Shown here one piece after another: positions 6,842-63,275 of a stretch of DNA of 64,000 nt (the stretch's first letter is position 1; each line of letters begins with the position of its first letter). The stretch is from Catajapyx aquilonaris (lineage: Eukaryota): contig KZ538245.1 in the NCBI GenBank assembly GCA_000934665.2, positions 1-64,000 of the forward strand. Direction: 5' to 3'. Made by a program: the position numbers and the translations under genes. The notes beneath the pieces were generated by a model, which did no database searches, was not told where the DNA came from, and saw nothing but the letters and a program-made list of their open reading frames with translations.

Positions 6842-9098
6842 TCATCTCAGAAAGATTCGTAGATGAGCGGGTTTGGGCTTCCGCAATTTCTGGCTCATTT
6901 CGGTGACAAACACTACGAGAGAAGCTGCCAGTCCCATGCACCAGAAGAACATAACGACTGCGATGTGATAAATATTCAGCTTCTTTCCCTTCCCAGTATT
7001 GAAGTGCAAATTGTTCTTCCAACGGTTTTCTGCCAGGTTGAACAACAGCTTCTGATATGTCTGTTCTTCGTACCACTGATGCAATATTCCAGACTCCAAG
7101 AGTTGCTGGAAGTAGTACTTGAACGTTTGCGAGTACACGGCTCCTTTGTGGGTGGTGGCCACCACAAAGATCTGGTAGTTTTTCATCGGAGCGACCTGAA
7201 AAGTCAGCTCTCCGCTTGGATCCATGAATTCGCCCACTACCCGATATATGAAGAAGCTGTATGCAATGCAAGCACGCTCAGGAATGCCCACAACTTTCTC
7301 CACGCAGGACAGCGAGTTCAGGATGATGTCGGATTTGTTGAACAACGCAATGTGTGTCGGATTCACTATTTGCGTGCTGACCTAAACGTGGTTGGAAAAA
7401 GTTTCAGTCACATTTACGGATTAAAAGAGCTGCGATTACCCCCATATACCTGCTTCAATGCGAGAGAATCAGCGAATGGAATGATAGTCTTGAATCCGGA
7501 GTGATACAACTCGTCCAAGTTCTTGGGCAGTACCTCCAAATGCGGCGTTGCGATGATCCCAACAAGTTTGGTCCTGTAGGCGCAGGTGATCACGATCGCC
7601 AGGATCCAAAACGCAGTGGCGAAGACACGAATATCGTTGGATTCAGGCAGTTCAGGCGGCTGCTCCAGCAGCATCCTTCCAAGAGCAGACATGGCTGACG
7701 TCAACCTGAATGCAAACATATTAAATTGATTGATTGATTGATTAATAGATAGATAGACAGATGCATTGATGGATTGATTGATTAATAGAGAGACATGAAT
7801 GAATGAATGAATTGTTGATTGTTTGATAAATAATTAATAATTATTGAGATATTAATTGATTAATTGATTGATAGGTACCAACCTGAATGTGTACAGCCGC
7901 CGATGCCCAAGCTTCCAGAGGACAAAGATGCAAAGTACGACAGAGACGCACAAGTAGATCCAAGTGACTTTTGTCAGAGGCTCGAACAGAAGGTTCCATC
8001 TGAAGGACTGTCTGGGCAGAGCGGTGACGAACGTGATGTGGAAATAGTAGATCGGGTGTGTCACTTGGATGTACTGAAGAGCTTCTGGGACCAGGACGTA
8101 GATGAAGCCGCATTCAGACCTCTCTGCGTACAGCTCCCCGATGGTGCCCATCCACGATCCGTTGTCCATTTGGTAGTCCCATTTCTCCTCGGTCACAGTC
8201 GGCTGTCTGATTTTGACGTGGGCGTCCAATGCGTCCTCCAAGTGGACGCAGAACTTCTCAAATGGAGTGAGACGATGGTTCCCCAATGTATGTCTGATGT
8301 GACGGGCATTCGTTGTGTCTATCAGCTCGAAGTGGTTGAAGACAATGCTGAGGCCATGCAGACGTCGTGACATATCTGGGTAGTAGTAGTGACCTCTCAC
8401 AGTCTTGTGGGGGTAACCAACAAGTCTCAAAGGCGAAGGAGAACCAGAGTCGCAGTAGAAGCATGTGGTTTCCATGCTCAAAGCTTGTGCAGTGGAATTG
8501 TAACTGTGTGAGACAACATCAGAATATTAGTAGCTGTAAAATGGGACAAATCTTTGTTGTCAACAACTCACCTGGAGGCCAGCTTGAATCGGATTCCTGC
8601 TGCTGGATGTTGTGTAAACATCCCCTGTGGATCTCCACGTCTGAAGTGAACCAGAAAGTAGTCGTCAAGATTCCTGATGCGAACGTGGGCTATGGCATGG
8701 AGTATCATTTTGGTGAAATCTTGAGGATCTTCCAACACGAAGAGGTTGAGGGCGCATGTACCACCAGGTGATAGCCTGGACTTCATCTCTGGAGGCATTG
8801 TCCGAAATGAGTTCATCTGCTCCTCCTTTGTGATGGCCAGATACTCGTTCCATGGCTTTGGGGTCAGCTTGGTGTGCTGACCAATACTGAGAGACACTGA
8901 TGGCCTATAGGACAGTCTCAGTGGGACGAATGTGTCATTATCTGATTTGACTATCACCAGGGAACAATCAGAGTGCTCCAATTCGCGCAGAAGGTCTGAA
9001 ACCAGCTGGTTCAGGACATGATCTTCTTCAGATTCAGGAGTGGTTGACGGTAACCCAAAGGTCACGGTCAGCCAGAGAAGAGACAACCAAGCCCACAT
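6842..9098 (-). CDS. Divergent ionotropic (chemosensory) receptor IR-A; introns about 8505-8571, 7706-7882, 7382-7449
   Basis: Signal peptide MWAWLSLLWLTVTFG; S1 motif DNGSWMGTIGELYAERSE; LFEPLTKVTW (pre-M1); GRMLLEQP (pore); FWILAIVITCAYRTKLVGII (M3); LLESGILHQW; M4 helix at the C-terminus. Confidence 0.88.
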
Positions 9099-9962: not shown

Positions 9963-12576
9963 TTATCTAAGAAAAATCCTGAGGTGTGCTGGCTTAGGTT
10001 TTCTGAGTCCACAGCATGTCTCACTGACAAACCCAAGGACTGAAACAGCCAGTCCCATAAACCAGAAGAAGAAGACCACTGCGATGTGCATCATCTTCAA
10101 CTTCTTTTCGTTTTCAGCCTCGTTCTCATCATCATCATCCTTCTTTTTCCATCTGCTATCTGCCAGGTTGTACAGCTGTCTCATGAACGTCTGCTCCTTG
10201 TACCACTGTGGAAGTATCCCAGACTCCAGGAGCCTTTGGAAGTAGTCCCTGAAGGCTTGTGCATACACTGCTCCGTTGTGAGTTGTGGCCACCACGAATA
10301 TCTTGTAGTTCTTCATAGGAGCCACCTGAAATGTCAGCTCTCCTTTTGGATTGATGAACTCTCCAACGATCCTGTCTATGAAGAAGCTGTAGGCGATACA
10401 TGCGTACCCTGGAGCTCCAACAACTTGCTCCACACACGACTGGGAGTTCAGGATGATGTCTGACTTGTTCAACACCGAAATGTGATACGGATTCACAATT
10501 TGGGTGCTCACCTGAAAACATCCTGTAAGTTAGGCTTCCTGTGCATTCGTGATGTCTGAAGTGTAGCTCTGAATAGTCAGGATGAAACTAACCTGCTTCA
10601 GTGCTAATGAATCAGCAAACGGGATGATCGTTTTGAATTTGGACAAGTACAGATCGTCCAAGTTCTTCGGCAGCACTTCCTTCTGTGGTGTGGCTATTAT
10701 CCCTACCAGTTTGCTTCTGTACCCACATGTGATCACGATGGCCAGGATCCAAAAGGTGGTCGAAAAGATTCGGATGTCGTTCGAATCCGGGAGAACCGGA
10801 GGCTGCTCCATCAGCATCCTTCCAAGGGCAGCCATGGCCGAGGACAACCTGAAGGTGTAAGATCGCCTGTGACCCAGCTTCCAGAGGACCAGAGAACAAA
10901 GCAAGACGCTGGCACACAGGTACATCCAAACTTCAAAAGTCATAGGCTCGAACAGAAGGTTCCATCTAAAGGACAGTCGAGGCAGGGCTGTCACAAAGGT
11001 CAGATGGAAGTAGTAGATCGGCTGGGTCATCTCGATGTAAGGCACAGCTTCTGGGACCAGCACGTAGATCAACCCTGCCTCTGACCTATTTGATGAAAAA
11101 AATCATAAATCATATTTTGAGTCGTTCGCAACAATGTCAGAAGAGGCGCAAGCATTCGATTTCCGCGTCTCTCTGTTTGGTGCGTTGCCAAGGATGGCGG
11201 CCATCTTGAAGTGTGGGGAACGCCAACGAGGTGTAAATAGGGTACAGGCAAAAATAGGGTCCGCCATCTTTGATTCGCGCGTGTTCTTGCCATGTAGTTG
11301 CCATGGCCGCTAAAACCATCAAAGATGGCGAACCATATTTTAGCCTGTACCCTATTTATACCTCGTTGGCGTTCCCCACACTTCAAGATGGCCGCCAGCC
11401 TTGACAACGGCCCCAAACAGAGAGACGCGAACATCAAAGGCGCCGACAGAAGTTTGCGCCTCTTATGTTGACAATGTACTGACCTTCCGGCGTACAGCTC
11501 TCCAATGGTGCCCATCCACGATCCGTTGTCCATTTGATAGTCCCATTTCCCTTCTGTCACAGTCGGCTGTCTTATTTTGACGTGGGCGTCCAATGCGTCC
11601 TCCAAGTGGATGCAGAACTTCTCAAATGGAGTGAGACGATGGTTGCCCCATGTACGTCTGATGTGACGGGCATTCTTTGTGTCTATCAGCTCGAAGTGGT
11701 TGAAGACAATGTTGAGACCATGCAGACTTCGTGACATATCTGGGTAGTAGTAGTGACCTCTCACAGTCTTGTGGGGGTAACCAACAAGTCTCAAAGGCGA
11801 AGGAGAACCAGCGTCGCAGTAGGTACAAGTTGTCTCCATGCTCATAGCTTGTGCACTAGCGTTGTAGCTAAAAGGCATTGTATGGTATACACGTACTAAC
11901 AGTTTAGACATTTTTTAAAAAAATAAAAAAGTGTAGTTTTCAGACTGTTCCCATGAACCATCAGCATGTAAGACGTCAGCCAGGACATACAAACATACGG
12001 ACACACATCCTTTATATATACCATGAGAGAAAGATTAACTCACCTTGATGCAACCTTCAATCTGATACTTGCACTTGGATGCTGTACGAACAACTCTTGA
12101 GGATCTCCCTTCCTAAAGTGCATTAGGAAGTAATCTTCGAGATTCCTGATGCGAACGTGGGCTATGGCATGGAGTATCATTTTGGGGAAATCTTGAGGAT
12201 CTTCCAACACGAAGAGGTTGAGGGCGCATGTACCACCAGGTGATAGCCTGGACTTCATCTCTGGAGGCATTGTCCGAAATGAGTTCATCTGCTCCTCCTT
12301 TGTGATGGCCATGTACTCGTTCCATGGTTTCAAAGTGTGCGTTGTCTGTTGTCCGATGTTGAGGATCACAGTAGGCCGGTACAAGAAGGACTTTCCAGTG
12401 AGATAGCTGGCATGACCTGATCTGACTAGCACCAGTGAGCAATCGGAGTTCTCGAGGTCACGTAGCAGGTCATATGTCAGCTGCATCAAAACTTGATCTT
12501 CTTTGGAGTCAGTTGTAGTAGTTGAAGGTAACCCGAAGGTCACCACGAAGCAATTACATATCAGTAATATCCACAT
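9963..12576 (-). CDS. Divergent ionotropic receptor IR-B, tandem paralog of IR-A; introns about 11869-12043, 11086-11483, 10512-10592
   Basis: Same motifs as IR-A, with long near-identical stretches and an identical C-terminus LRKPKPAHLRIFLR. Confidence 0.88.
11145..11468. mobile_element. Dispersed fold-back repeat filling the IR-B-specific intron; second copy at about 62961-63275
   Basis: Internal inverted arms (cgcgtctctctgtttg..gatggcggccat..gaagtgtggggaacgccaacgag) and high similarity to 62961-63275. Confidence 0.8.
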
Positions 12577-12624
12577 AACCTGTAGTACACAAAATGTACT
12601 GTCACTTCTATAGGATAGTGTCAG

Positions 12625-12685
12625 TGAAGCTCAAAATAGCCTCCAAGAAAGGCATAGCCTTTCTTGGAGGCTATTTTGAGCTTCA
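12625..12685. repeat. Perfect 29-bp inverted repeat with a 3-nt loop upstream of IR-B
   Basis: tgaagctcaaaatagcctccaagaaaggc-ata-gcctttcttggaggctattttgagcttca. Confidence 0.9.
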
Positions 12686-13824
12686 AGTCTGCTAACCTTA
12701 CTATACTATAGTAGTGACTGTTCAGTACTATTTTCATCACAATTTGTGGCATTGTGATTATGATAATGCTACAAAGAAAACAACAACTCTAGAGCAAGCA
12801 AACAATATTCCGACCGGACACACCAAAATCCTAAAGACAAACTTGAAGTCTCCTTGAATGCAATATATGTAATAGCTAATATAATTGCAGGTTTCTGTTG
12901 TATTATCGTGTCGCGGGGGTTTCGAAATATGGCGTTAAGTACAGCCGAAGCACTCAGAGAAATGAGAGTATCAATAATGAGAAAGGTCATATCCTCATTT
13001 ATATAGGGGGTCGAAATTCTTATAATGTTCATGAGTAAAGGAGAGGCTTTTAGTGTAGATGAACTATGTTATCTGGAATATCAGCATGTTGAGCAAGCAT
13101 TGCTGGAATATCATATCAAAAGCACTTGCTTGCGAAATATTATTACGCGATACATGTTCGGAGAAGGTGTCAGAAAAGTAATTAAACACCAGTGTGTGGG
13201 AAAGGGTCAATCACTAAATAATGTGACCTCAAATTGATCGGCTATTGCAATGATAAATGTTTAATTTTGGTAGAGGGGGTCTTGTGGAATTCATTTTGTT
13301 TCTCTGGAAGCCCGCAATCCCTATATATGTTATATATTTTATGTATATATACATAAGCGACAATATTTTTTGTTGGTATGCATGTATGTCACGGCTACTT
13401 AACTCACTTCCACATCTATGAGAGCACAGAAATTTTTCAGCGGAGCTCTCCGCATATTTTTTCTAAAATCTACTTATAGCAAGTTAAGGCAAAGTTTGTT
13501 TGTTTGTTTGTTTGTTTGTTTGTTTGTTTGTCCTTGCGGCAGCGAGTTTTTGTTATTGATTATCAATGGAAACAGACCTTATAGATTCTATTCAAAAAAA
13601 AATTTGCATGACCCCATTGGGATTTACCATAATTATCCTTTAGGGGGGTGAATTATACCACCATCGGAAATTGGAGCCATATAAGAAGATCTTAATTCGC
13701 ATTTCTCCAGGGTATTTTTATTTTTATTTTTATTTATTTTATTTATTCTACCCCATTAGCTGGCCTATTGGCCATTTTTCTCTAGGGTATAGGTAGGAGG
13801 GGATGTGCAAAGTGCAAGTGCAAT

Positions 13825-32675: not shown

Positions 32676-32853
32676 TTAAAGGTATTTTTTTTTCCTTCCA
32701 AAGAAAGAACAAACAAACAAGCAGACCAAAAAATGCTGTGGATGTGGAAAGTGAGAGGTTGAGAAGTTCGAAGGGGAGGCCGGCAGGTGGCAGGACCGGT
32801 CTGAAAAACCGCTTCCAAGTTGGAACGCGTCACTAACGGATCCGGAAATTGGG

Positions 32854-32928
32854 NNNNNNNNNNNNNNNNNNNNNNNNNNNNNNNNNNNNNNNNNNNNNNN
32901 NNNNNNNNNNNNNNNNNNNNNNNNNNNN
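32854..32928. other. Assembly gap (N run) inside the TRAM1/Ars2 divergent promoter region
   Basis: 75 N bases next to G-runs; YY1-type motifs (aaatatggcggc, aaacatggcgg) at about 33003-33041; probable non-coding Ars2 exon donor at about 33202. Confidence 0.9.
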
Positions 32929-33596
32929 GTCATGGGGGGGGGGGGAGAAAAAAATGTTGATTGAAATACAGTACTGTACTTGTTACATGTTGCGACTTGA
33001 ACAAATATGGCGGCCGCAAATGCCTTGATCAAACATGGCGGCTAATCTCGTGTGGGAAGTGGATGACGTCATTATAAGACAGTCAGTGGTTGTCAGCCAT
33101 TTTGAAATCGGCGGCATCGACGCCAAGAGGGGCGAATGTTCTCTGATTGAATCGAACGGGGGGCAGAAAAGTTTGAGGGCCGCCCGCCCCTGGGGTTGTA
33201 GGTGAGATTCTCTCTGCTTTTGGTTTGGAAATTGGGGGTTTTGTTGGAAGTATTTCCAATTTGAGGTTGATGGGTACACTTTTTGGGGGGGGGAGGGGGG
33301 AAGGGGTTGGGGAAATAGAACACTGTGGGTTGTGTAATAATTGAACATTTTAAGGCACCTTAGACCGACCCAATTGTTGCGGCTTCAGATCTGTCCGCGT
33401 ACAGGCTCGTTCACACAGGCCGTCTACGGTTTTTGGTCGACGCCGCGGACTCATGTAAACAAGCGTAACGCTGCGGCGTCAACGCGACCAAAGACCAAAA
33501 CCGTCGACGCCTTAATGGGCCTTAAAAAGTGCTGAAAACGATCCGACGCCATCGTCACAACAACAATATGAGTACTAAACAGCATCAACAAAAAAC

Positions 33597-44563: not shown

Positions 44564-47500
44564 ATGTTTGGACTTGCATCTTGTCTGTTGGCCGCACTTT
44601 TGATTCAAGTGATGGGGTCGACAAAAGTGACATTGACCTCTGCAGGTCACCTGGAGGACCTCATGTTTGACCTGGTTCAACATGTGTCAGCTGAGGACTG
44701 CTCGTTGGTCCTTGCATGGGACGGACCTGTTATGTCCGAGTCCCTCCAGAAGCTTCTGCGTGTCTCGGGTCAGGTCAGGTACCGACCTGTTGTGACCACC
44801 AGGATGACCTCGTTTGAATTCAACTGGCGTGACTACCCTGGTGTACGGTCGGACGACTGGTTGTACTCCTTCGACACCATGCCTCCAGAACTACGGTCCA
44901 ACCTGTGGCCAGGCCCGTGCTCCTTCAACTTACTGGCACCTAGTACTGGGTGAGTCATACTCTGCCAGTGGATAGATTGGACCAATAAGAATCGAAAATG
45001 TAGAGGCGTGAAATGTCGACAAACTAACCGTTAACGATGTACAGAGCATCAAAGACAGCACTGCCGTCAGATATGAGAAGACCGTAACTCATTATCCACT
45101 TCCCTTGCGGCGAGAAAAGACATCAAGTGTTACCGAGAGCATCCAAGAGGTGGCGTTGGGGGAAGGGGGAAAAAGGAACGGCATCCCAACTCCACCTGTT
45201 GGGTGCTTTTGGTACCACTGCTTTTTTTCTCGCCGCAAGGGGAAGTGGACATTGAGTTACGGTCTTCTCATATCTGACGGCAGTGCTGTCTTTGATGCTC
45301 TGTACATCGTTAACGGTTAGTTTGTCGACATTTCACGCCTCTACATTTTCGATTCGTATTGGTCCAATCTATCCACTGACTCACTCTGCAGATCCGTACG
45401 GCAACTCGTGGTACACTTGGCGTCCGCTGTCCGTACTGTGAATCTCCGTGACAAGTTCATGTTCTGGATGCCGCCGAAGACATCACCGACGTTCATGCTG
45501 GATCCGCCGTTGAATGGTATCCGGCTCAAACTGGCTGCCGTACCGGTACGCAACGCCGTACAGTTAAGCACCATCTGTTTCTACTGCAACAACGGTGAAC
45601 CTACGATACTCGATCTCGGACGACACCGGTCCAACATTGCACTTCAGACCAGTGCATCGTTGTACCCCGACAACTCCCGGAACTTCTACGGGAAGACCGT
45701 GTCCATATGCAACATCGTGGACGTCGATCTGTCCGGAGCACGACGTAACCTGGAAGCGGGCAACACCCACGCTCTGTCGATCCAACAACGGATGGTGACA
45801 ATGTACGAAGACTTCTTCAACTTCACAGCCACCATATACGTACCGGAGCTGTCCGAGAACATACTGGAGTCACGTCTACCCAACGGAAGCTGGAGCGGTT
45901 CGGTGGACACGATCCAGACTGGGAAGGCCGTCGGTGTGCTCATATCGTACATCACATCCGAGGCCATACCTTTCGTCGAGGTGCTGTACCCTCTGGTCCC
46001 ATCGTACCTGTCATTCGTCACCAGAAAGGCCAGGGATGTCATCAGGGTCACGGTGTTTCTGGCCCCGTTCACCGCAGTCACATGGGGCATGATCACCGTG
46101 GCCATCGTGGTATCGCTGCTCTTCATGTACGGCGTCGTCAATCGCAGGTGCGGTCCACCGACGACGACCCACCAGATGTCGCTCAGGAAGGCTCTTCAGG
46201 TACGGGCTTAATCCTATTCGCATCGTCAAAAGCGAGAGGAAAGTGGACCCGTTCCGGAACAGGCACACGTCCATGTAGATCCGTTCTGGAACCGATCCAC
46301 TACTTCCATAGAGCCGTTCTGGAACCGGCCCACTTCCATAGACCAGTAACAGGCCCAACTTCCATGCAGACCCGTTCCGGAACCGGCCCACTTCCACAGA
46401 CCCGCTCCGGAACCGGCACACGTCCATATAGATCCGTTCTGGAACCGATCCACTACTTCCATAGAGCCGTTCTGGAACCGGCCCACTTCCATAGACCAGT
46501 AACAGGCCCAAATTCCATGTAGACCCGTTCCGGAACCGGCCCACTTCCACAGACCCGCTCCGGAACCGGCACACGTCCATATAGATCCGTTCTGGAACCG
46601 GTCCACTTCCACAGACCCGCTCCGGAACCGGCACACGTCCATATAGATCCGTTCTGGAACCGGTCCACTCCCATAGACCTGTTCTGGAGCCGATCCACTA
46701 CTTCCACAGACCCGTTCTGGAACCGGCCCACTTCCATACGACCAGTTCCAGAACAGGCCCAACTTCCATAATTATATAGACCCGTTCTGGAATCGGTCCA
46801 CTTTTAAGGTTCCCCGAAGGAAGAAGAGAGTTACCGAGATAAATTATTATCATCAAATTTCGTGGTTTCATTGATGCCTTGGCATGGCAACCGGTTGCCG
46901 TGGAAAACCCGGTTGCCATGGTAACGGAGCTTATTGGGGGCGATAAGGAATAAGCAAGAGCGAACAAACAAATGTCGCTTTTTATCGTTTGTGTCATGGT
47001 AACCAAACATGGACAAACGACGAACCAAATGAACAAACATATTGTCTTTTTATAAAATGGCATGGCAACCGGTTGCCATGGAAAACCATATGGTAACGAA
47101 ACCTGGACAAGGAAGCAAGCGAACGAACAAACATTGCTTTTTTTTATCATTTATATGACATATGGCAACCGGTTGTCATGGTAATCGAACCTGGACAAGC
47201 AAGCAAGCAAGCAAACGAACAAACGAACAAACCGCTGCCTTTTTTCATATTTACATATGACATTGCAACCGGTTGCCATGGCCCATATGGTATAGTAGCC
47301 AAACATGGAAAAGGCGAACACACGAACGAACGAACACGTTGTCTTTTTTTTTATCACACATGGCATGGCAACAGGTTGCTTGTCCAGGTTTCGTTACCAT
47401 ATGGCAACCGGTTGCCATGGAAAAAACGAGTTGCAATGGTAACGATAACCTGAACAAGTAAAAGAGCAAGCGAACGAAAAACAACCAAACATTATTGCCT

Positions 47501-48752
47501 TTTTATAATACAAGTAAGGATAGAGATATTTTGAAGCCCATTATCTCGGTAACGATGCTTCGGAGAGGTCAAATGTCATATCTTTACTGACATGATGTGA
47601 CCCCTCCTGACCTATAACGAGTCCTCAGAAGTTGTGACCTGTACCCAGCACACTGTATATTATATATAACTTTCCCCTCAGGTTGTTCTTCGCGAATTTG
47701 TGGAGCAGTCGATGCCGTTGCCGGACATGGACGCCCTCCGATGCTTCTTCGTGTTCCTGGCCTTCTTCGCCGTCGTGGTCGTCTGCGGCTACAAGTCCAA
47801 GCTGGTCGCGTTCCTGACCTCCCCGGACAAGGAGGTGGTGCCCAAGACCTTCTCGGAGCTGGTCTCCTCGGGCTGGGACGTCGGGATGCCCTTCATCGAC
47901 TTCACAGCCATGCACATCATGTCCAAGTCCGTCCAGTCCGACATGAGCTCCTTCCTCACCAACACAGCCGAGAACGTCGGTACCATCCGGAAGTGCTTCA
48001 GAACCGTCCTGGACGACGACTTCGCCTGCGTGGCCTACGACTACTTCCTGGAGCTGGAGAGAAACAGCTTCATCACATCTGACGGCACATCCAAGGTCTG
48101 TCCAAGTCTGAAACATATAGAAAAACAAACCGGAAAATGACGTAAACGACCAGAAATCATTTTGTGACCCCTAGACACGCGCGGCAACCCACATTGCACG
48201 TGCAATGCGGGTTGCCGCGCGTGTCTAGGGGCACAAAATGATTTCTGGTCGTTTTCCGGGCACAGTCGCACAAACTTGGACGAATTTTGTGCCCCCTAGA
48301 CACGCGCGGCAACCCGCATTGCACGCGCAATGTGGGTTGCCGCGCGTGTCTTAGGGGCCACAAAATTACTTCTCGCTTGTTTTGACCTTCCTTTTCCGTC
48401 CAAGGTGTACTGGTCCAAGGCGTCCACGTACGATTTTTACATCACGTCGATGCAAGGTCGTGGTCAGGTGTTCGCAGTGGCGTACCAGGCCATGCACGTT
48501 CGGACCTTCGAGAGCGACGTGATCATGAAGGCCATCAGAGACGAGATGTGGGGGAAGTTCATCACGTCCTTGTTCCAACAGAGGAGACTCAAGCGGTACC
48601 GGTACTTCACTGGAGACGAGTACATACTCTCCATGTACAAGCTCTCGTCCGTCTTCATGCTCTGGGGTGTCGGTCTCTGGATGTCTCTTCTGGCTATTGG
48701 ATGCGAGGTTGTGACTGGCTGGCTCTGCTTGCCCACACTCTCGGAAGGTTGA
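44564..48752 (+). CDS. Divergent ionotropic receptor IR-C; introns 44950-45391, 46200-47681, 48096-48404
   Basis: Signal peptide; FDTMPPELRS shared with IR-A/B; LPNGSWSGSV, FLAPFTAVTW, REFVEQ, VVVCGYKSKLVAFLT and an M4 helix. Frames join across all three introns. Confidence 0.85.
44966..45378. mobile_element. 413-bp MITE with ~150-bp near-perfect TIRs occupying almost all of IR-C intron 1
   Basis: cagtggatagattggaccaata...ccttgcggcgagaaaa is mirrored by ttttctcgccgcaagg...tattggtccaatctatccactg. Confidence 0.9.
46245..46800. repeat. ~29-33-bp GC-rich minisatellite with higher-order periodicity (gttccggaaccggcccacttccatagaccc)
   Basis: Tandem array in IR-C intron 2; the source of the repetitive spurious ORFs here. 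Confidence 0.9.
46880..47500. repeat. Degenerate repeats built on the palindrome catggcaaccggttgccatg
   Basis: Motif recurs at about 46883, 47060, 47162, 47265 and 47401. Confidence 0.8.
48145..48370. repeat. Two near-perfect palindromes filling IR-C intron 3
   Basis: ttttgtg..ccctagacacgcgcggcaaccc.cattgcacg.gcaatg.gggttgccgcgcgtgtct.aggggc.cacaaaa occurs twice. Confidence 0.85.
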
Positions 48753-49513: not shown

Positions 49514-51273
49514 ATGGACCCGCCGGTACAACCAAGCATCAACGAGTCCTTCTGCGCAAGGGACGACCACGAGACGTCTCGAGTGTGTCTGACAGAGGCA
49601 TGGGCACCCTCGTGTTGTTACCCGGATTACCCTCAGTACTTCAACATGATCGCCGGGTCATACTGGCTCCTCCTTTGCATTGTCGGCGGATTTGGCAACA
49701 TGATGGTCCTGGTGGCCATACCGTACGCCAGATGGAGATGCACCGACCCTCGAAGTCCCCTGAAGATAGAGCTGCACCACCGTGCTGCTCCTCAGTCTCA
49801 GCCTGGCCGATTGTCTCTACTCCTTCATCACCCTTGGAGGATCGGCCATCACCATGCTCAACAGGAAATGGGTTCTAGGAACCTCCCTATGCTACATCTT
49901 CGCCTTCACTAGCCACTTGCTAGGGGTAGCCTCGCCGTACTCGCTGGCAGCCGCTACAATGAGCAGGTAAAAGCCACAATAACGTTCGTTACAAAGCCAC
50001 AATAACGTTCGTTCCGCTCAAAAGAACGATGGAACTGTGGTGGCCATCAGGAGCCGAATGAATTGATCTTCGAGCCTTACAGCGGAATCCCATTTGCAAT
50101 CGGTGTCTGGCTAGTGGCCAGTACAGTGCCGATACTAATAGCCGTGAGTACATATTACAAGTACATTATGGAATCCGGACCTTTCGCCCCCGCCGTTTCG
50201 CCCCGGACTTTCAGTCCCGGAGTATTCGCCCCCGTGACACATTCTACCAGTTGAATGTGTCACGGGGGCGAATCCACCGGGGCGAAAGATCCGGATCCAG
50301 GCCGAATGCTTCACAGTATCCGGATTTCACCCCCGCCGTTTCCCGGCGGATTCGCCCCCGTGACGCATTCTATTAGTGGAATATGTCGCGGGGGCGAATA
50401 CGCCGGGGACTGAGAGTCCGGGAGCGAAACGGCGGGGGCGAAAGATCCGGATACTTTGAAGCATTCGGCTGCGAATTTCTAGAGAAGCTTGTGTGTAGCC
50501 TGGAAACGGCGGGGACGGACGCTACATTTTTTTGCACTAATCTGCTGGCATCACAGGTGCAGAATGGTTTTGGCTACAGTCGCATACAAGGTAACTGCCT
50601 CATAATCAACATGAACCAAGTGACAGCCGATGTCATCTACGGTATCGCAATTGGTCTGCCATGGATATCTGTGCTTGCATGTCTCGCCATGATCTGGATC
50701 AAGCTGAACCAGAACTGGACCAGGTTGAAGCAGTTTAAGTGAGTTTTGGCAGACACTCGAGGGCAAAGTGGCCATTTTGTTGACAACTGAAGCAGACACT
50801 CGGGGGCAAAGTGGCCCTTTTTTAACAATTGAAGCAATTTTGTTGGCCAGCACTTTCAGATGCTTCATACTAAAGTATATTGTGGTGTCCACTCATATAC
50901 AGAGACATAGGAAAGACAACTCTTCAGGAAGTAAAGGAGCGTGAGAAGAGGATGGCCATTCTTCTGGCCTTTTTGGGTGCTGCATACTCCAGCACCACAG
51001 CACCAGTGGTGGTCATCTACGTCTGCTGCACCGGTGGTCCTTGGGCCAAGCCATACATTTACTTCGCATTTTTCACCCTCTACTACTACGTTATCAATGT
51101 CTTCATTTACATCTACAGGTATTATTCCAGATGGATAGTTTTGCAGGAGGAAATTAATTAATTTCGTTCATTTGCGCAGGATAAACAGCTACAGAGAAGC
51201 GTTCGTATTGTTTTACCACGACATGTCCAATTGGGTTAATGAGAGGCTGAGGAATCTATTGGGCGTTAAATGA
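49514..51273 (+). pseudogene. Tre1/Moody-like rhodopsin-class GPCR paralog 1, with a 4-bp frameshift near 49766
   Basis: Same five-exon layout as paralogs 2 and 3. It has ctgaagATAGagctgcacc where paralog 2 has ctcaagagctgtacg, so the coding sequence jumps between ORFs 49391-49912 and 49782-49970. Confidence 0.7.
50170..50470. mobile_element. Inverted-repeat-rich dispersed element in GPCR-1 intron 2
   Basis: tccgga.ctttcgcccccgccgtttcg ... cgaaacggcgggggcgaaagatccgga; related to 21618-21710. Confidence 0.7.
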
Positions 51274-55409: not shown

Positions 55410-56602
55410 ATGGAGTGCTATCCAGAGTATCCGCACTATTTCACACTAATCGCAGCCGCGTACTGGCTTCTTATCTGCTTCGTCGGAGGGTTTGGCAATC
55501 TCTTGGTCCTAATCGCTCTTCCCTATGCGAGAAGAAGATGCAGCGATCCACGTAGCCCGCTCAAGAGCTGTACGACTGTGTTGCTCCTCAGCTTAAGCCT
55601 GGCCGACTGCCTCTTCTGCTTCATCACCCTCGGAGGATCCGCCATCACCATGTTGATTGGGAAGTGGTACATCGGTTCAGGACTCTGCTACGCAACATCG
55701 TTCGTCAGCCACATTCTCGGCATCGCATCTCCTAGTTCGCTTGCAGCCGCTACGATGAGCCGGTACATATTACTTTCCATGTAACGTAATGTAACGTACT
55801 AATGAAATATCTGACCGTAGGACGATGGAATTGTGGTGGCCGTCAGGAGCTGCGGTTATATTCGAAGCGTACAACGGCATACCGTCAGTCATCGGCGTTT
55901 GGTTACTCGCAAGCATAGCACCAGTACTCGGAGCTGTGAGTTACACACTGCTGTAAAGCAGAAACAAATTGTTAATCGCACTATATACAGGTTCAGAATC
56001 TGTTTGGATACAATCCGATACCTGGATGCTGCGTGATCATCAGCGTGGATCAGACGACGTCAAACATCGCGTACGGATTGTGCATCGGTATCCCTTGGGT
56101 CGTGGTTCTAGTGTGTCTCATACTCATTTGGGTGAAGCTGAGCAAAAATTGGTCGGAGCTGAAGCAATTCAAGTAGGTAAGAGCCGTAAGATGGGCACAA
56201 CAATTAGCTTTTAACGTTTGTTTTTTTTGTTCGCAGAGATGTTGGTCAGAGTACGCTTCGAGAGCTGAAAAACCGGGAGCGGAAAATGGCATTGTTGCTT
56301 ACATTATTGGCCGCAGCTTATTCCAGCACGACAGCTCCGGTCGTGGCTCTTTACGTTTTCAGCGAAGGAGGACCATGGGCCGTACCGTACATTTACTTCA
56401 CATTCTTAATGCTTTACTATTACGCCATAAACGTGTTCCTCTACTTCTACAGGTACGCTTTGTAATAATTGCAGCTGTGACGACGTACTGAATTTTTATA
56501 CATTAATTTTGCAGGATACAGAGCTACCGAGATGCATTTCTCCGGCTTTACAAAGACGCATGCAAATGCGGATGCCGCCAACTGTTCAGATTACGCTCAT
56601 AA
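55410..56602 (+). CDS. Tre1/Moody-like GPCR paralog 2 (short N-terminus)
   Basis: VGGFGNLLVLIAL (TM1), LLLSLSLADCLF (TM2), LCY..SLAAATMSR (TM3), NVFLYFYRIQSYRDAF (TM7/H8); five exons. Confidence 0.75.
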
Positions 56603-56979: not shown

Positions 56980-58245
56980 ATGGCAAACGGCAGCTTCAAC
57001 GTTACATACTTTTGCGCAAAAGACGACCAGGAGACTTCTCGTGTGTGCCTGACCGAATCATGGGCACCGTCATGTTGCTATCCGCCGTACCCGTCATATT
57101 TCGCCGTGATTATGGGAACGTACTGGCTCATCATGGGAATCGTCGGAGGGTTTGGAAACCTCATGGTGCTGATAGCCTTGCCGTATGCCAGAAGAAAGTG
57201 CACGGATCCTCGTAGCCCACTGAAGAGCAGCACAACGGTCCTTCTGCTGAGTCTGAGCCTCTCGGATTGTCTCATATGCTTCATCGTCATCGGTCCGTCA
57301 GCTATCGTTACGTTCATCGGAAAATGGTGCCTCGGATATAAATTCTGCTACTTTTTCGCCTTCAACTATCATCTGCTAGGATTAGCATCACCGTACTCGA
57401 TGGCAGCAGCTACAATAAACAGGTAATTGGCGATCCAAATTTTTCTGAAATTTGCGTTAGTTGTACAAACGTGTACCGCATTTTCTGTTAATTAAAAAGG
57501 GCGATGAAGCTGTGGTGTCCTGCCGCAACGGACAAGATATTTGAGCCGTACAGCAGTCTCCCGGTAGTACTTGGCGTATGGATTCTATCAAGTTTAGTGC
57601 CCATATTAGCCGCTGTAAGTATTAACAGCGCTACGTACTAATTGCGACTAATGATAATTTTAAAATGTGCAGGTCCATGATGACATCGGATACAGTCGAA
57701 TCCAAGGCGGATGCGTTATAATCACAGCGAACCTTCCGATTTCAAGCACTCTATTCGGAATAGCAATGTGTCTTCCGCTTATTGCGGTGCTTGTTTGCCT
57801 CGTACTAATCTGGATCAGGCTCAACAAAAATTGGTCGGAACTGAAGCAATTCAAGTACGAATTACTTCCCCGATTATTCACGGCACAGTAACCACACGCT
57901 GTCTTATTACAGAGGCATCAGCCAGACTACGCTACAGGAGTTAAAACGCAGGGAAAAGCGAATGGCGAACCTATTGATGCTTTTGGCCGCCACTTATTTT
58001 ACGTCGATTGCACCGATTTTCGCTTTTTACGCATTCAGCGAAGGAGGACCGTGGGTTCAACCTAACATCTACTTCACGTTCCTTACAGTCGACTACTTTG
58101 CGGTCAACGTGTTCCTCTACTTCTACAGGTAAAGGATAATCCGCAGCATAAATCCAACCCGGCTAATTTTCAATCTCTCCGCAGGATAAAGAGCTATCGA
58201 GATGCAATGGCACTGTTCTACAAAGACATGAGCTGTACGAAATAA
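56980..58245 (+). CDS. Tre1/Moody-like GPCR paralog 3
   Basis: MANGSFNVT (N-glycosylation sequons), GFGNLMVL, LSLSLSDC, AATINR, KRREKRMA, NVFLYFYRIKSYRDA; five exons. Confidence 0.8.
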
Positions 58246-58771: not shown

Positions 58772-62625
<3,854 letters not shown>

Positions 62626-62960: not shown

Positions 62961-63275
62961 ACATAAGATGCGCAAACTTCTGTCGGCGCCTTTGATGTCC
63001 GCGTCTCTCTGTTTGGGCCCGTTGCCCAGGATGGCGGCCATTTTGAAGTGTGGGGAACGCCAACGAGTACAGGCAAAAATATGGTCCGCCATCTTTGATT
63101 CGCGCGTGTTCTTGCCGTGTAGTTGCCATGGCCGCCAAAACCATCAAAGATGGCGGACCATATTTTTGCCAGCACCATATATTTATACCTCGTTGGCGTT
63201 CCCCACACTTCAAAATGGCCGCCAGCCTTGGCAACGCCACAAACAGAGAGACGCGGAAATCGAATGTTTGCGCCG
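62961..63275. mobile_element. Second copy of the fold-back repeat found in the IR-B intron
   Basis: Shared sequence with 11145-11468; the ORF-track peptides at both loci match (e.g. RKLLSAPLM..LCLGPL..AAILKCGERQR). Confidence 0.8.

Follow-up and report, generated by a model that had tools for sequence, protein, structure and literature searches.

A paralogue-specific intron with a junction duplication and an internal foldback repeat in a predicted receptor gene pair

Within a 64,000-nucleotide (nt) stretch of contig KZ538245.1 (the window), two tandem genes, here called IR-A and IR-B and both on the minus strand, each contain an intron that the other lacks. Our subject is the private intron of IR-B (11086..11483, minus strand), a predicted GT–AG intron of 398 nt in phase 2 that interrupts an AGG codon, is largely filled by a foldback repeat and is bounded by a 7-base-pair (bp) direct repeat. 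The IR-B gene model (9963..12576, minus strand; exons 12576-12044, 11867-11484, 11085-10593 and 10511-9963) was built from open reading frames (ORFs), the alignment with IR-A and the spliced frame, and encodes 652 amino acids; the IR-A model (6842..9098, minus strand; exons 9098-8572, 8503-7883, 7705-7450 and 7381-6842) encodes 647. From its sequence, IR-B is a divergent ionotropic-glutamate-receptor-like channel of the smell or taste receptor type; its exon 3 matches the Pfam domain Lig_chan (PF00060; E=1.8e-07, 31.5 bits against a cut-off of 30.8). The label IR is given by analogy with the divergent receptors of arthropods. A third, distant paralogue, IR-C (approximately 25% identity; 44.5-48.8 kb, plus strand), scores 18.4 bits for the same domain, which is under the cut-off. 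Because IR-C has no intron position in common with IR-A or IR-B, lacking both of their shared introns and both private ones, intron positions within this family are, on the present comparison, fluid. When IR-A exon 2 was searched against proteins of the near and longer length classes, there were 0 matches and thus no orthologues for a comparison of intron positions.

On the minus strand the junctions of the IR-B intron read GCCGGAAG|GTCAGTAC ... TCAAATAG|GTCAGAGG and, as the original prediction had it, AGGTCAG stands at both (11485-11479 and 11087-11081), the direct repeats lying 398 nt apart. The upstream copy (11479..11485, minus strand) comprises exonic AG and intronic GTCAG and forms the 5′ splice site; the downstream copy (11081..11087, minus strand) comprises intronic AG and exonic GTCAG and forms the 3′ splice site. 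Splicing in silico yields an open frame of 1959 nt and 652 amino acids that aligns residue for residue with IR-A. Because read-through would shift the frame (398 = 3n+2) and meet a stop at 11069, splicing would be needed for an intact IR-B protein. The absence of this intron from IR-A, another part of that prediction, is borne out: the site corresponds to approximately 8117 in IR-A, where the alignment is uninterrupted and the homologous codon is continuous (GCAGAGAGGTCTGAATGC). IR-C also gives a single unbroken alignment across the site, and the intron is thus absent from the homologous position in both relatives, which are paralogues. Over the 343 codons that follow the intron, the ratio of non-synonymous to synonymous divergence (dN/dS) between IR-B and IR-A is 0.11, at a synonymous divergence (dS) of 1.58. 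From the open exons, this purifying selection downstream and a repeat copy that appears not to be brand new, because at least eight listed positions differ from the family majority, we infer that the segment is removed from the IR-B message; a neutral gene would probably have gained a stop or a frameshift since the arrival of the repeat.

Outside the repeat, the intron retains 15 nt at its 5′ end (11469..11483, minus strand), including the 5′ splice site GTCAGT, and 55 nt at its 3′ end (11086..11140, minus strand), with a T-rich tract directly before the AG; the contig bin at 10937-11133 is at single-copy depth. Without the repeat the intron would measure 58-70 nt, and 13 of the 22 modelled introns of the window belong to a class of 53-81 nt. 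When these non-repeat parts and the private intron of IR-A were compared with the window, just short chance or low-complexity matches were found, and no donor or source intron. As RNA, the intron is predicted to fold into a single hairpin (-251.7 kcal/mol, z -22.7), a value equalled by 0 of 100 shuffles, with a stem that begins a few bases past the 5′ splice site, while approximately 45 nt at the 3′ end stay unpaired.

The repeat that fills most of the intron does recur, as predicted, at 62961-63275. BLAST aligns 11145-11468 with 62961-63274 at 80.9% over 330 nt and 11152-11438 with 62988-63264 at 87.2% over 290 nt; against its own reverse, the intronic core matches at 82% over 295 nt, and its arms (11176-11274 and 11318-11416) are 91% complementary. 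Small, non-coding and present in high copy number, with inverted arms, the family has the features of foldbacks and miniature inverted-repeat transposable elements (MITEs). The window contains two copies, one in the intron and one in no recognisable gene, approximately 1.7 kb upstream of the first coding exon of a ribophorin II-like gene; the description of the second copy as intergenic holds in that no recognisable ORF or gene is found there, and depends on that absence alone. Contigs from three DNA runs of one sample were placed on the window at 80% likeness. Their summed depth over the core reaches 71,000-107,000, against approximately 32 in the flanking bins, and although summed depth is no copy number, it clearly marks a family of very high abundance.

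The same contigs reveal how the family ends. In each run, 32-37 contigs part from the window sequence immediately ahead of 11141, and 40-48 do so immediately past 11468. The sequences into which they continue are consistent, being mutual inverted copies of approximately 17 nt that end in ...GCTCCCTG, and they match the ends of the second copy (62961..63275, unstranded), which keeps recognisable family termini, and not the IR-B intron. Because other members continue in agreement with the second copy and not with the intron, the IR-B copy is, as read from these contigs, a family core (11141..11468, unstranded) from which the terminal approximately 17 nt are missing at either side. Where readable, the family termini lack a GT at the left end and an AG at the right. 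Close to the core there is a second 7-bp direct repeat, ACAATGT (11131..11137, plus strand, with its other copy at 11471-11477), which is offset by 3 nt on one side, is nearly self-complementary and, by our estimate for windows of this size, has a chance expectation of approximately 9%. It could be the target-site duplication of the repeat itself or an extension of the stem. The second family copy has no flanking direct repeat of at least 6 bp.

No placed contig spans the repeat, and no contig joint skips the 398-nt intron or the 340-nt repeat unit; the contigs showed no empty-site or repeat-free allele, which proves nothing. The joints 11467>8575, 11471>12658 and 8822>11141 resemble other loci at which a family copy lies beside other repeats. 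Three collections (metagenome, prokaryote-genome and viral) were scanned for exact patterns of the repeat core, and each gave 0 loci. Three further identities were considered and set aside. The 15- and 55-nt flanks are not decayed family termini, as each agrees with them by eye at approximately 5 of 16 positions, the random level; an Rfam match to MIR848 is sub-threshold (34.3 bits against a gathering score of 90) and was taken as a generic hairpin artefact; and a retroelement-type insertion was rejected, there being no A-rich 3′ tail in either orientation.

The original prediction had read the intron as an introner-like insertion and the repeat family as a maker of introns. A paralogue-specific intron with a junction duplication is indeed present, and to that extent the first reading stands; the duplication, however, does not abut the element. 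The termini of the element and the boundaries of the intron do not coincide, with 15 nt at the 5′ side and 55 nt at the 3′ side lying outside the family homology, and AGGTCAG borders the intron rather than the family-homologous core, because other members run approximately 17 nt further, into termini that are missing here. The claim that the family creates introns is therefore not supported for IR-B, where the core ends 15 and 55 nt inside the intron. An intron of one of three G-protein-coupled receptor (GPCR) paralogues in the window offers a comparison. Intron 2 of paralogue G1 (50144-50556, plus strand) is 413 nt long and contains a foldback at 50203-50407, and its position is shared with G2 (55936-55990, 55 nt) and G3 (57615-57672, 58 nt); on position and length, this is a clear case of a foldback nested in a shared intron. 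Intron 3 of IR-C, which contains two further palindromic repeats, points the same way. Because the duplication brackets the intron, the IR-A private intron is free of the repeat, the second family copy lies in no recognisable gene and G1 illustrates nesting, the repeat in IR-B looks like a passenger and not the maker of the intron. G1 also has a frame break relative to G3 between 49765 and 49770, and may be a pseudogene or affected by an assembly error.

To set the junction repeats against chance, we modelled 22 introns in the window (nine in the three IR genes, four in the ribophorin II-like gene and nine in the three GPCR paralogues; one ribophorin junction near 60860 could not be modelled and was dropped) and measured for each the length of the in-register match across its 5′ and 3′ junctions. 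The null was built by matching the 5′ junction of every intron to 3′ junctions taken from other introns. Matches of at least 7 occurred in 2 of 250 null pairs from the 17 background introns, or in 8 of 440 from all 22, and matches of at least 11 in 0 of 440. Match lengths are 11, 8, 7, 6 and 1 in the five lineage-specific IR introns, as against 5 or fewer in the 17 background introns (Mann–Whitney p=0.009, several of the 17 being paralogous and not independent); the two introns common to IR-A and IR-B match over 2-5 bases. The full AG|GT exon context is found in 6 of 9 IR introns and in 0 of 13 others. The IR-B 7-bp repeat thus exceeds chance modestly, and the IR-A 11-bp repeat clearly.

That 11-bp repeat, CATTCAGGTTG, lies in register at both junctions of the IR-A private intron (7706..7882, minus strand); no other duplication signature in the window is as strong. 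The intron is 177 nt of AATC/ATTC-rich, low-complexity sequence that contains no repeat of the kind seen in IR-B, and IR-B is continuous at its position. The earlier observation that IR-A and IR-B each carry one private intron with the same duplication signature thus holds: both introns are in phase 2 at an AG|GT site, with in-register duplications of 11 bp and 7 bp, respectively. The interior of the IR-A intron is microsatellite-like, with a summed contig depth of approximately 800-1000 in the bin 7588-7784, and two runs contain a variant with an 8-base insertion behind 7794. Tandem duplication of exon sequence was rejected as the source of the introns, the interiors being unlike the flanking exons beyond the 7 and 11 bp.

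The repeats themselves bear on whether the introns were gained or lost. IR-A and IR-B are old duplicates, saturated at synonymous sites around the two repeats, and yet the intronic halves of both repeats are perfect and carry the synonymous state of their own gene: IR-B has TCA where IR-A has TCT, and IR-A has ACA where IR-B has ACC. Because they fit their own genes in spite of this saturation, the junction repeats look younger than the split of IR-A and IR-B. The 5′ splice sites are also unusual at +3 (GTCAGT in IR-B and GTTGGT in IR-A), as the copying of exon sequence would produce. With perfect repeats that follow their own synonymous states, odd +3 positions and intron positions that are fluid across the family, we lean towards gain over loss. 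The two genes are nearly identical in two tracts, at IR-B codons approximately 80-130 and 200-280, where dS is 0.04-0.2 compared with approximately 1-1.6 elsewhere, which indicates recent gene conversion between them, within 11484-12330 of IR-B and 8117-8860 of IR-A (minus strand). One tract stops approximately 25 nt upstream of the IR-B intron site.

The account we favour, tentatively and at somewhat less than even chances, is that the intron was gained by insertion after the split of IR-A and IR-B and that the repeat nested in it later. DNA would have been inserted at an AG|GT within an arginine codon of IR-B, duplicating 7 bp (AGGTCAG) as in the fill-in of a staggered break; the upstream copy would then give the GT and the downstream copy the AG, and splicing would restore the original frame exactly. 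The original intron would have been short, at approximately 58-70 nt the usual size in the window. In a second step, a terminally truncated copy of the abundant foldback would have lodged inside it. In the transcript, the repeat would fold away as a long hairpin that leaves approximately 15 nt at the 5′ side and approximately 50 nt at the 3′ side single-stranded, and with these the splice sites, a presumed branch point and the T-rich tract, such that the intron would still act as a short one. The sequence and the contigs show the anatomy, the restriction to one paralogue, the rarity of the junction repeat, the abundance and limits of the family and, by folding, the hairpin; from these we infer the splicing, the preference for gain over loss and the order of the two events.

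Several points weigh against this account. As only paralogues were compared, a single gain in IR-B is no more parsimonious than a single loss in IR-A. Preferential loss is reported for introns with microhomology at their junctions, and would give the same pattern of presence and absence (van Schendel & Tijsterman 2013, PMC3698931). AGGTCAG is in part splice consensus (AG|GT, with A at +4 and G at +5), so that approximately three positions are free, and the set of background introns is small and includes paralogous ones. The nested copy has no clean target-site duplication, given the 3-nt offset of ACAATGT and its approximately 9% expectation by chance. Finally, a transposase would not insert a truncated copy, and the arrival of the repeat is unexplained under either order of events.

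Intron loss is generally commoner than gain in animals, and this counts for a reading that we consider unlikely yet rank first among the alternatives, in which an ancestral intron was precisely deleted from IR-A by microhomology repair or through cDNA, the junction microhomology being fortuitous and the repeat a later passenger. The split of the two genes is old (dS approximately 1.6), which allows ample time; gene conversion has been active between them, as the two tracts with a dS of 0.04-0.2 suggest; and microhomology at exon–intron junctions predicts loss in nematodes and flies (PMC3698931). That study, however, scored just four junction positions and not repeats of 7-11 bp. Deletion from IR-A gives no reason for a perfect repeat with its own gene's synonymous states in the copy that kept the intron, and leaves the 11-bp repeat of IR-A unexplained (0 of 440 null pairs), as the intronic half should have decayed over a dS of approximately 1.6. 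IR-C, moreover, lacks both private introns and both of those that IR-A and IR-B share.

Doubtful too, and placed after loss, is a single step in which a fragment containing the foldback core and approximately 65 nt of other sequence was inserted or captured at a staggered break in the exon, creating the 7-bp duplication and the whole intron together; this corresponds to the captured-repeat or introner-like reading of the original prediction. AGGTCAG alone among the direct repeats encloses the whole segment in register with its splice sites, ACAATGT being a doubtful duplication of the repeat itself, and truncation of the copy at both ends suits capture of a nibbled fragment better than transposition; on the other hand, the ends of the element and those of the intron differ, and what lies outside the repeat resembles the ordinary short introns of the window in its size and its T-rich 3′ tract. 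The hairpin would draw both ends together, but the family's consensus termini, which lack a GT near the left end and an AG at the right, suggest an element not built for splicing. Foldbacks occur in three of the five lineage-specific IR introns, and intron 1 of IR-C is nearly all one palindrome, with 16 and 13 nt outside it; against this, the IR-A private intron bears the same signature without the repeat, and the GPCR G1 foldback lies demonstrably inside a shared intron. Capture of exogenous fragments at staggered breaks is a published model (PMC3020277). A very improbable reading makes IR-B a pseudogene with no intron, broken by an insertion whose 7-bp target-site duplication happens to contain AGGT: its anatomy of insertion and duplication fits any insertion, but the four exons are open without a stop or frameshift, the downstream dN/dS is 0.11, the repeat copy differs in sequence from most of the family, and excision at the GT and AG recovers exactly the frame and the alignment with IR-A.

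The introns of IR-C, all on the plus strand, have features of their own. Intron 1 (44950-45391) is a GT–AG intron of 442 nt at a position not found in IR-A or IR-B. Its palindrome (44966-45378, 413 nt) has arms of 139 nt that are 98% complementary, with 88.5% self-complementarity over 418 nt; save for a 10-nt insert in the left arm it reaches GTGAGTCA / TGACTCAC, it takes in the GTGAGT 5′ splice site, and ACTCTGC occurs near both ends. Because the 16 and 13 nt outside the palindrome are too little for a pre-existing intron, this would be a better candidate for a foldback-made intron than that of IR-B. Intron 3 (48096-48404, 309 nt), also absent from IR-A and IR-B, has an 8-bp in-register junction repeat, TCCAAGGT, a length reached by 1 of 250 or 2 of 440 null pairs, and within it two small palindromic repeats follow one another (48144-48254 and 48283-48367). 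Intron 2 (46200-47681, 1482 nt) lies approximately six codons from the position of the IR-A private intron, in another phase, and has a junction repeat of 6 (TCAGGT); long overlapping ORFs with repetitive translations on both strands of its interior suggest tandem repeats. A broader possibility is that the IR genes are actively gaining AG|GT introns through insertions that duplicate 6-11 bp, with foldbacks as agent or cargo, and that this is a new introner-like system in an animal. The IR-B private intron and introns 3 and 1 of IR-C would fit it, and we nevertheless regard it as quite unlikely.

Elsewhere in the window, an ORF at 59672-60850 (minus strand) is ribophorin II-like, with its best protein matches in insects (48% identity) and then in chelicerates and crustaceans; the organism is probably an arthropod without a close relative in the protein collection searched. 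In this gene, at 60850-60960 (minus strand), the frames of the second coding exon and of an exon of 392 amino acids, unusually long for the gene, differ, and they could be joined through one GT..AG pair alone, with a span of 17 nt; possible reasons are a frameshift, a splice pattern that was missed or an assembly error. A palindromic dispersed repeat lies just upstream of the IR-B start codon (12595-12724; 78% self-complementary over 133 nt, summed depth approximately 900-1200). The window is interrupted at approximately 32.8 kb by a run of 76 N, an assembly gap, with a corresponding run of X in the ORF 32676-33041.

Concrete animal cases of the origin of a new spliceosomal intron are few. The window contains tandem paralogues that each have a private intron with a perfect junction duplication, and a third paralogue with entirely different intron positions. 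If the proposed polarity and splicing are true, it would show in a small space how a fast-evolving receptor family has gained introns repeatedly in nature, and would also be a place in which to ask whether abundant hairpin repeats aid the splicing of new or enlarged introns. If the introns are ancestral, the pair would serve as an example of microhomology-linked loss.

Among known systems, intron gain by insertion at a staggered break has a published junction-duplication signature (Farlow et al. 2011, PMC3020277). The introns of IR-B and IR-A resemble such gains in being lineage-specific AG|GT introns in which an in-register repeat of 7 or 11 bp supplies both GT and AG, and the content of the IR-B intron is, as in that description, unrelated to the flanking exon. 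They differ from it in that old paralogues are compared here, and not populations or sister species, and in that polarity and splicing are putative. Microhomology-mediated loss (PMC3698931) would likewise give an intron in one gene, its precise absence from a relative and junction homology in the gene that keeps it; unlike the situation here, it is documented for four core positions, and it leaves perfect repeats of 7 and 11 bp that track their own genes unexplained. Ordinary nesting of MITEs or foldbacks is exemplified by the GPCR G1 intron 2, which with its foldback measures 413 nt compared with 55-58 nt in the paralogues. The IR-B host intron departs from that model in being paralogue-specific with a junction duplication, and its nested copy in being truncated and without a clean duplication.

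Huff et al. 2016 are said to have described introners as MITE-like elements that create introns. Introners are so characterized, as elements that create introns on insertion, by Gozashti et al. (2022, PMC9860276) and in a review (PMC11282704). In an introner, the element with or without its duplication is the intron; in IR-B, by contrast, 15 and 55 nt at the two ends of the intron lie beyond the family homology, the family termini are missing, and the private intron of the sister gene IR-A does not contain the element. What IR-B has in common with introners, as portrayed in those texts, is a small, non-coding, high-copy inverted-repeat element in a lineage-specific intron, with a short duplication that supplies the splice sites. 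A true animal introner would be notable, given that Gozashti et al. (PMC9860276) report introners from only two animal groups.

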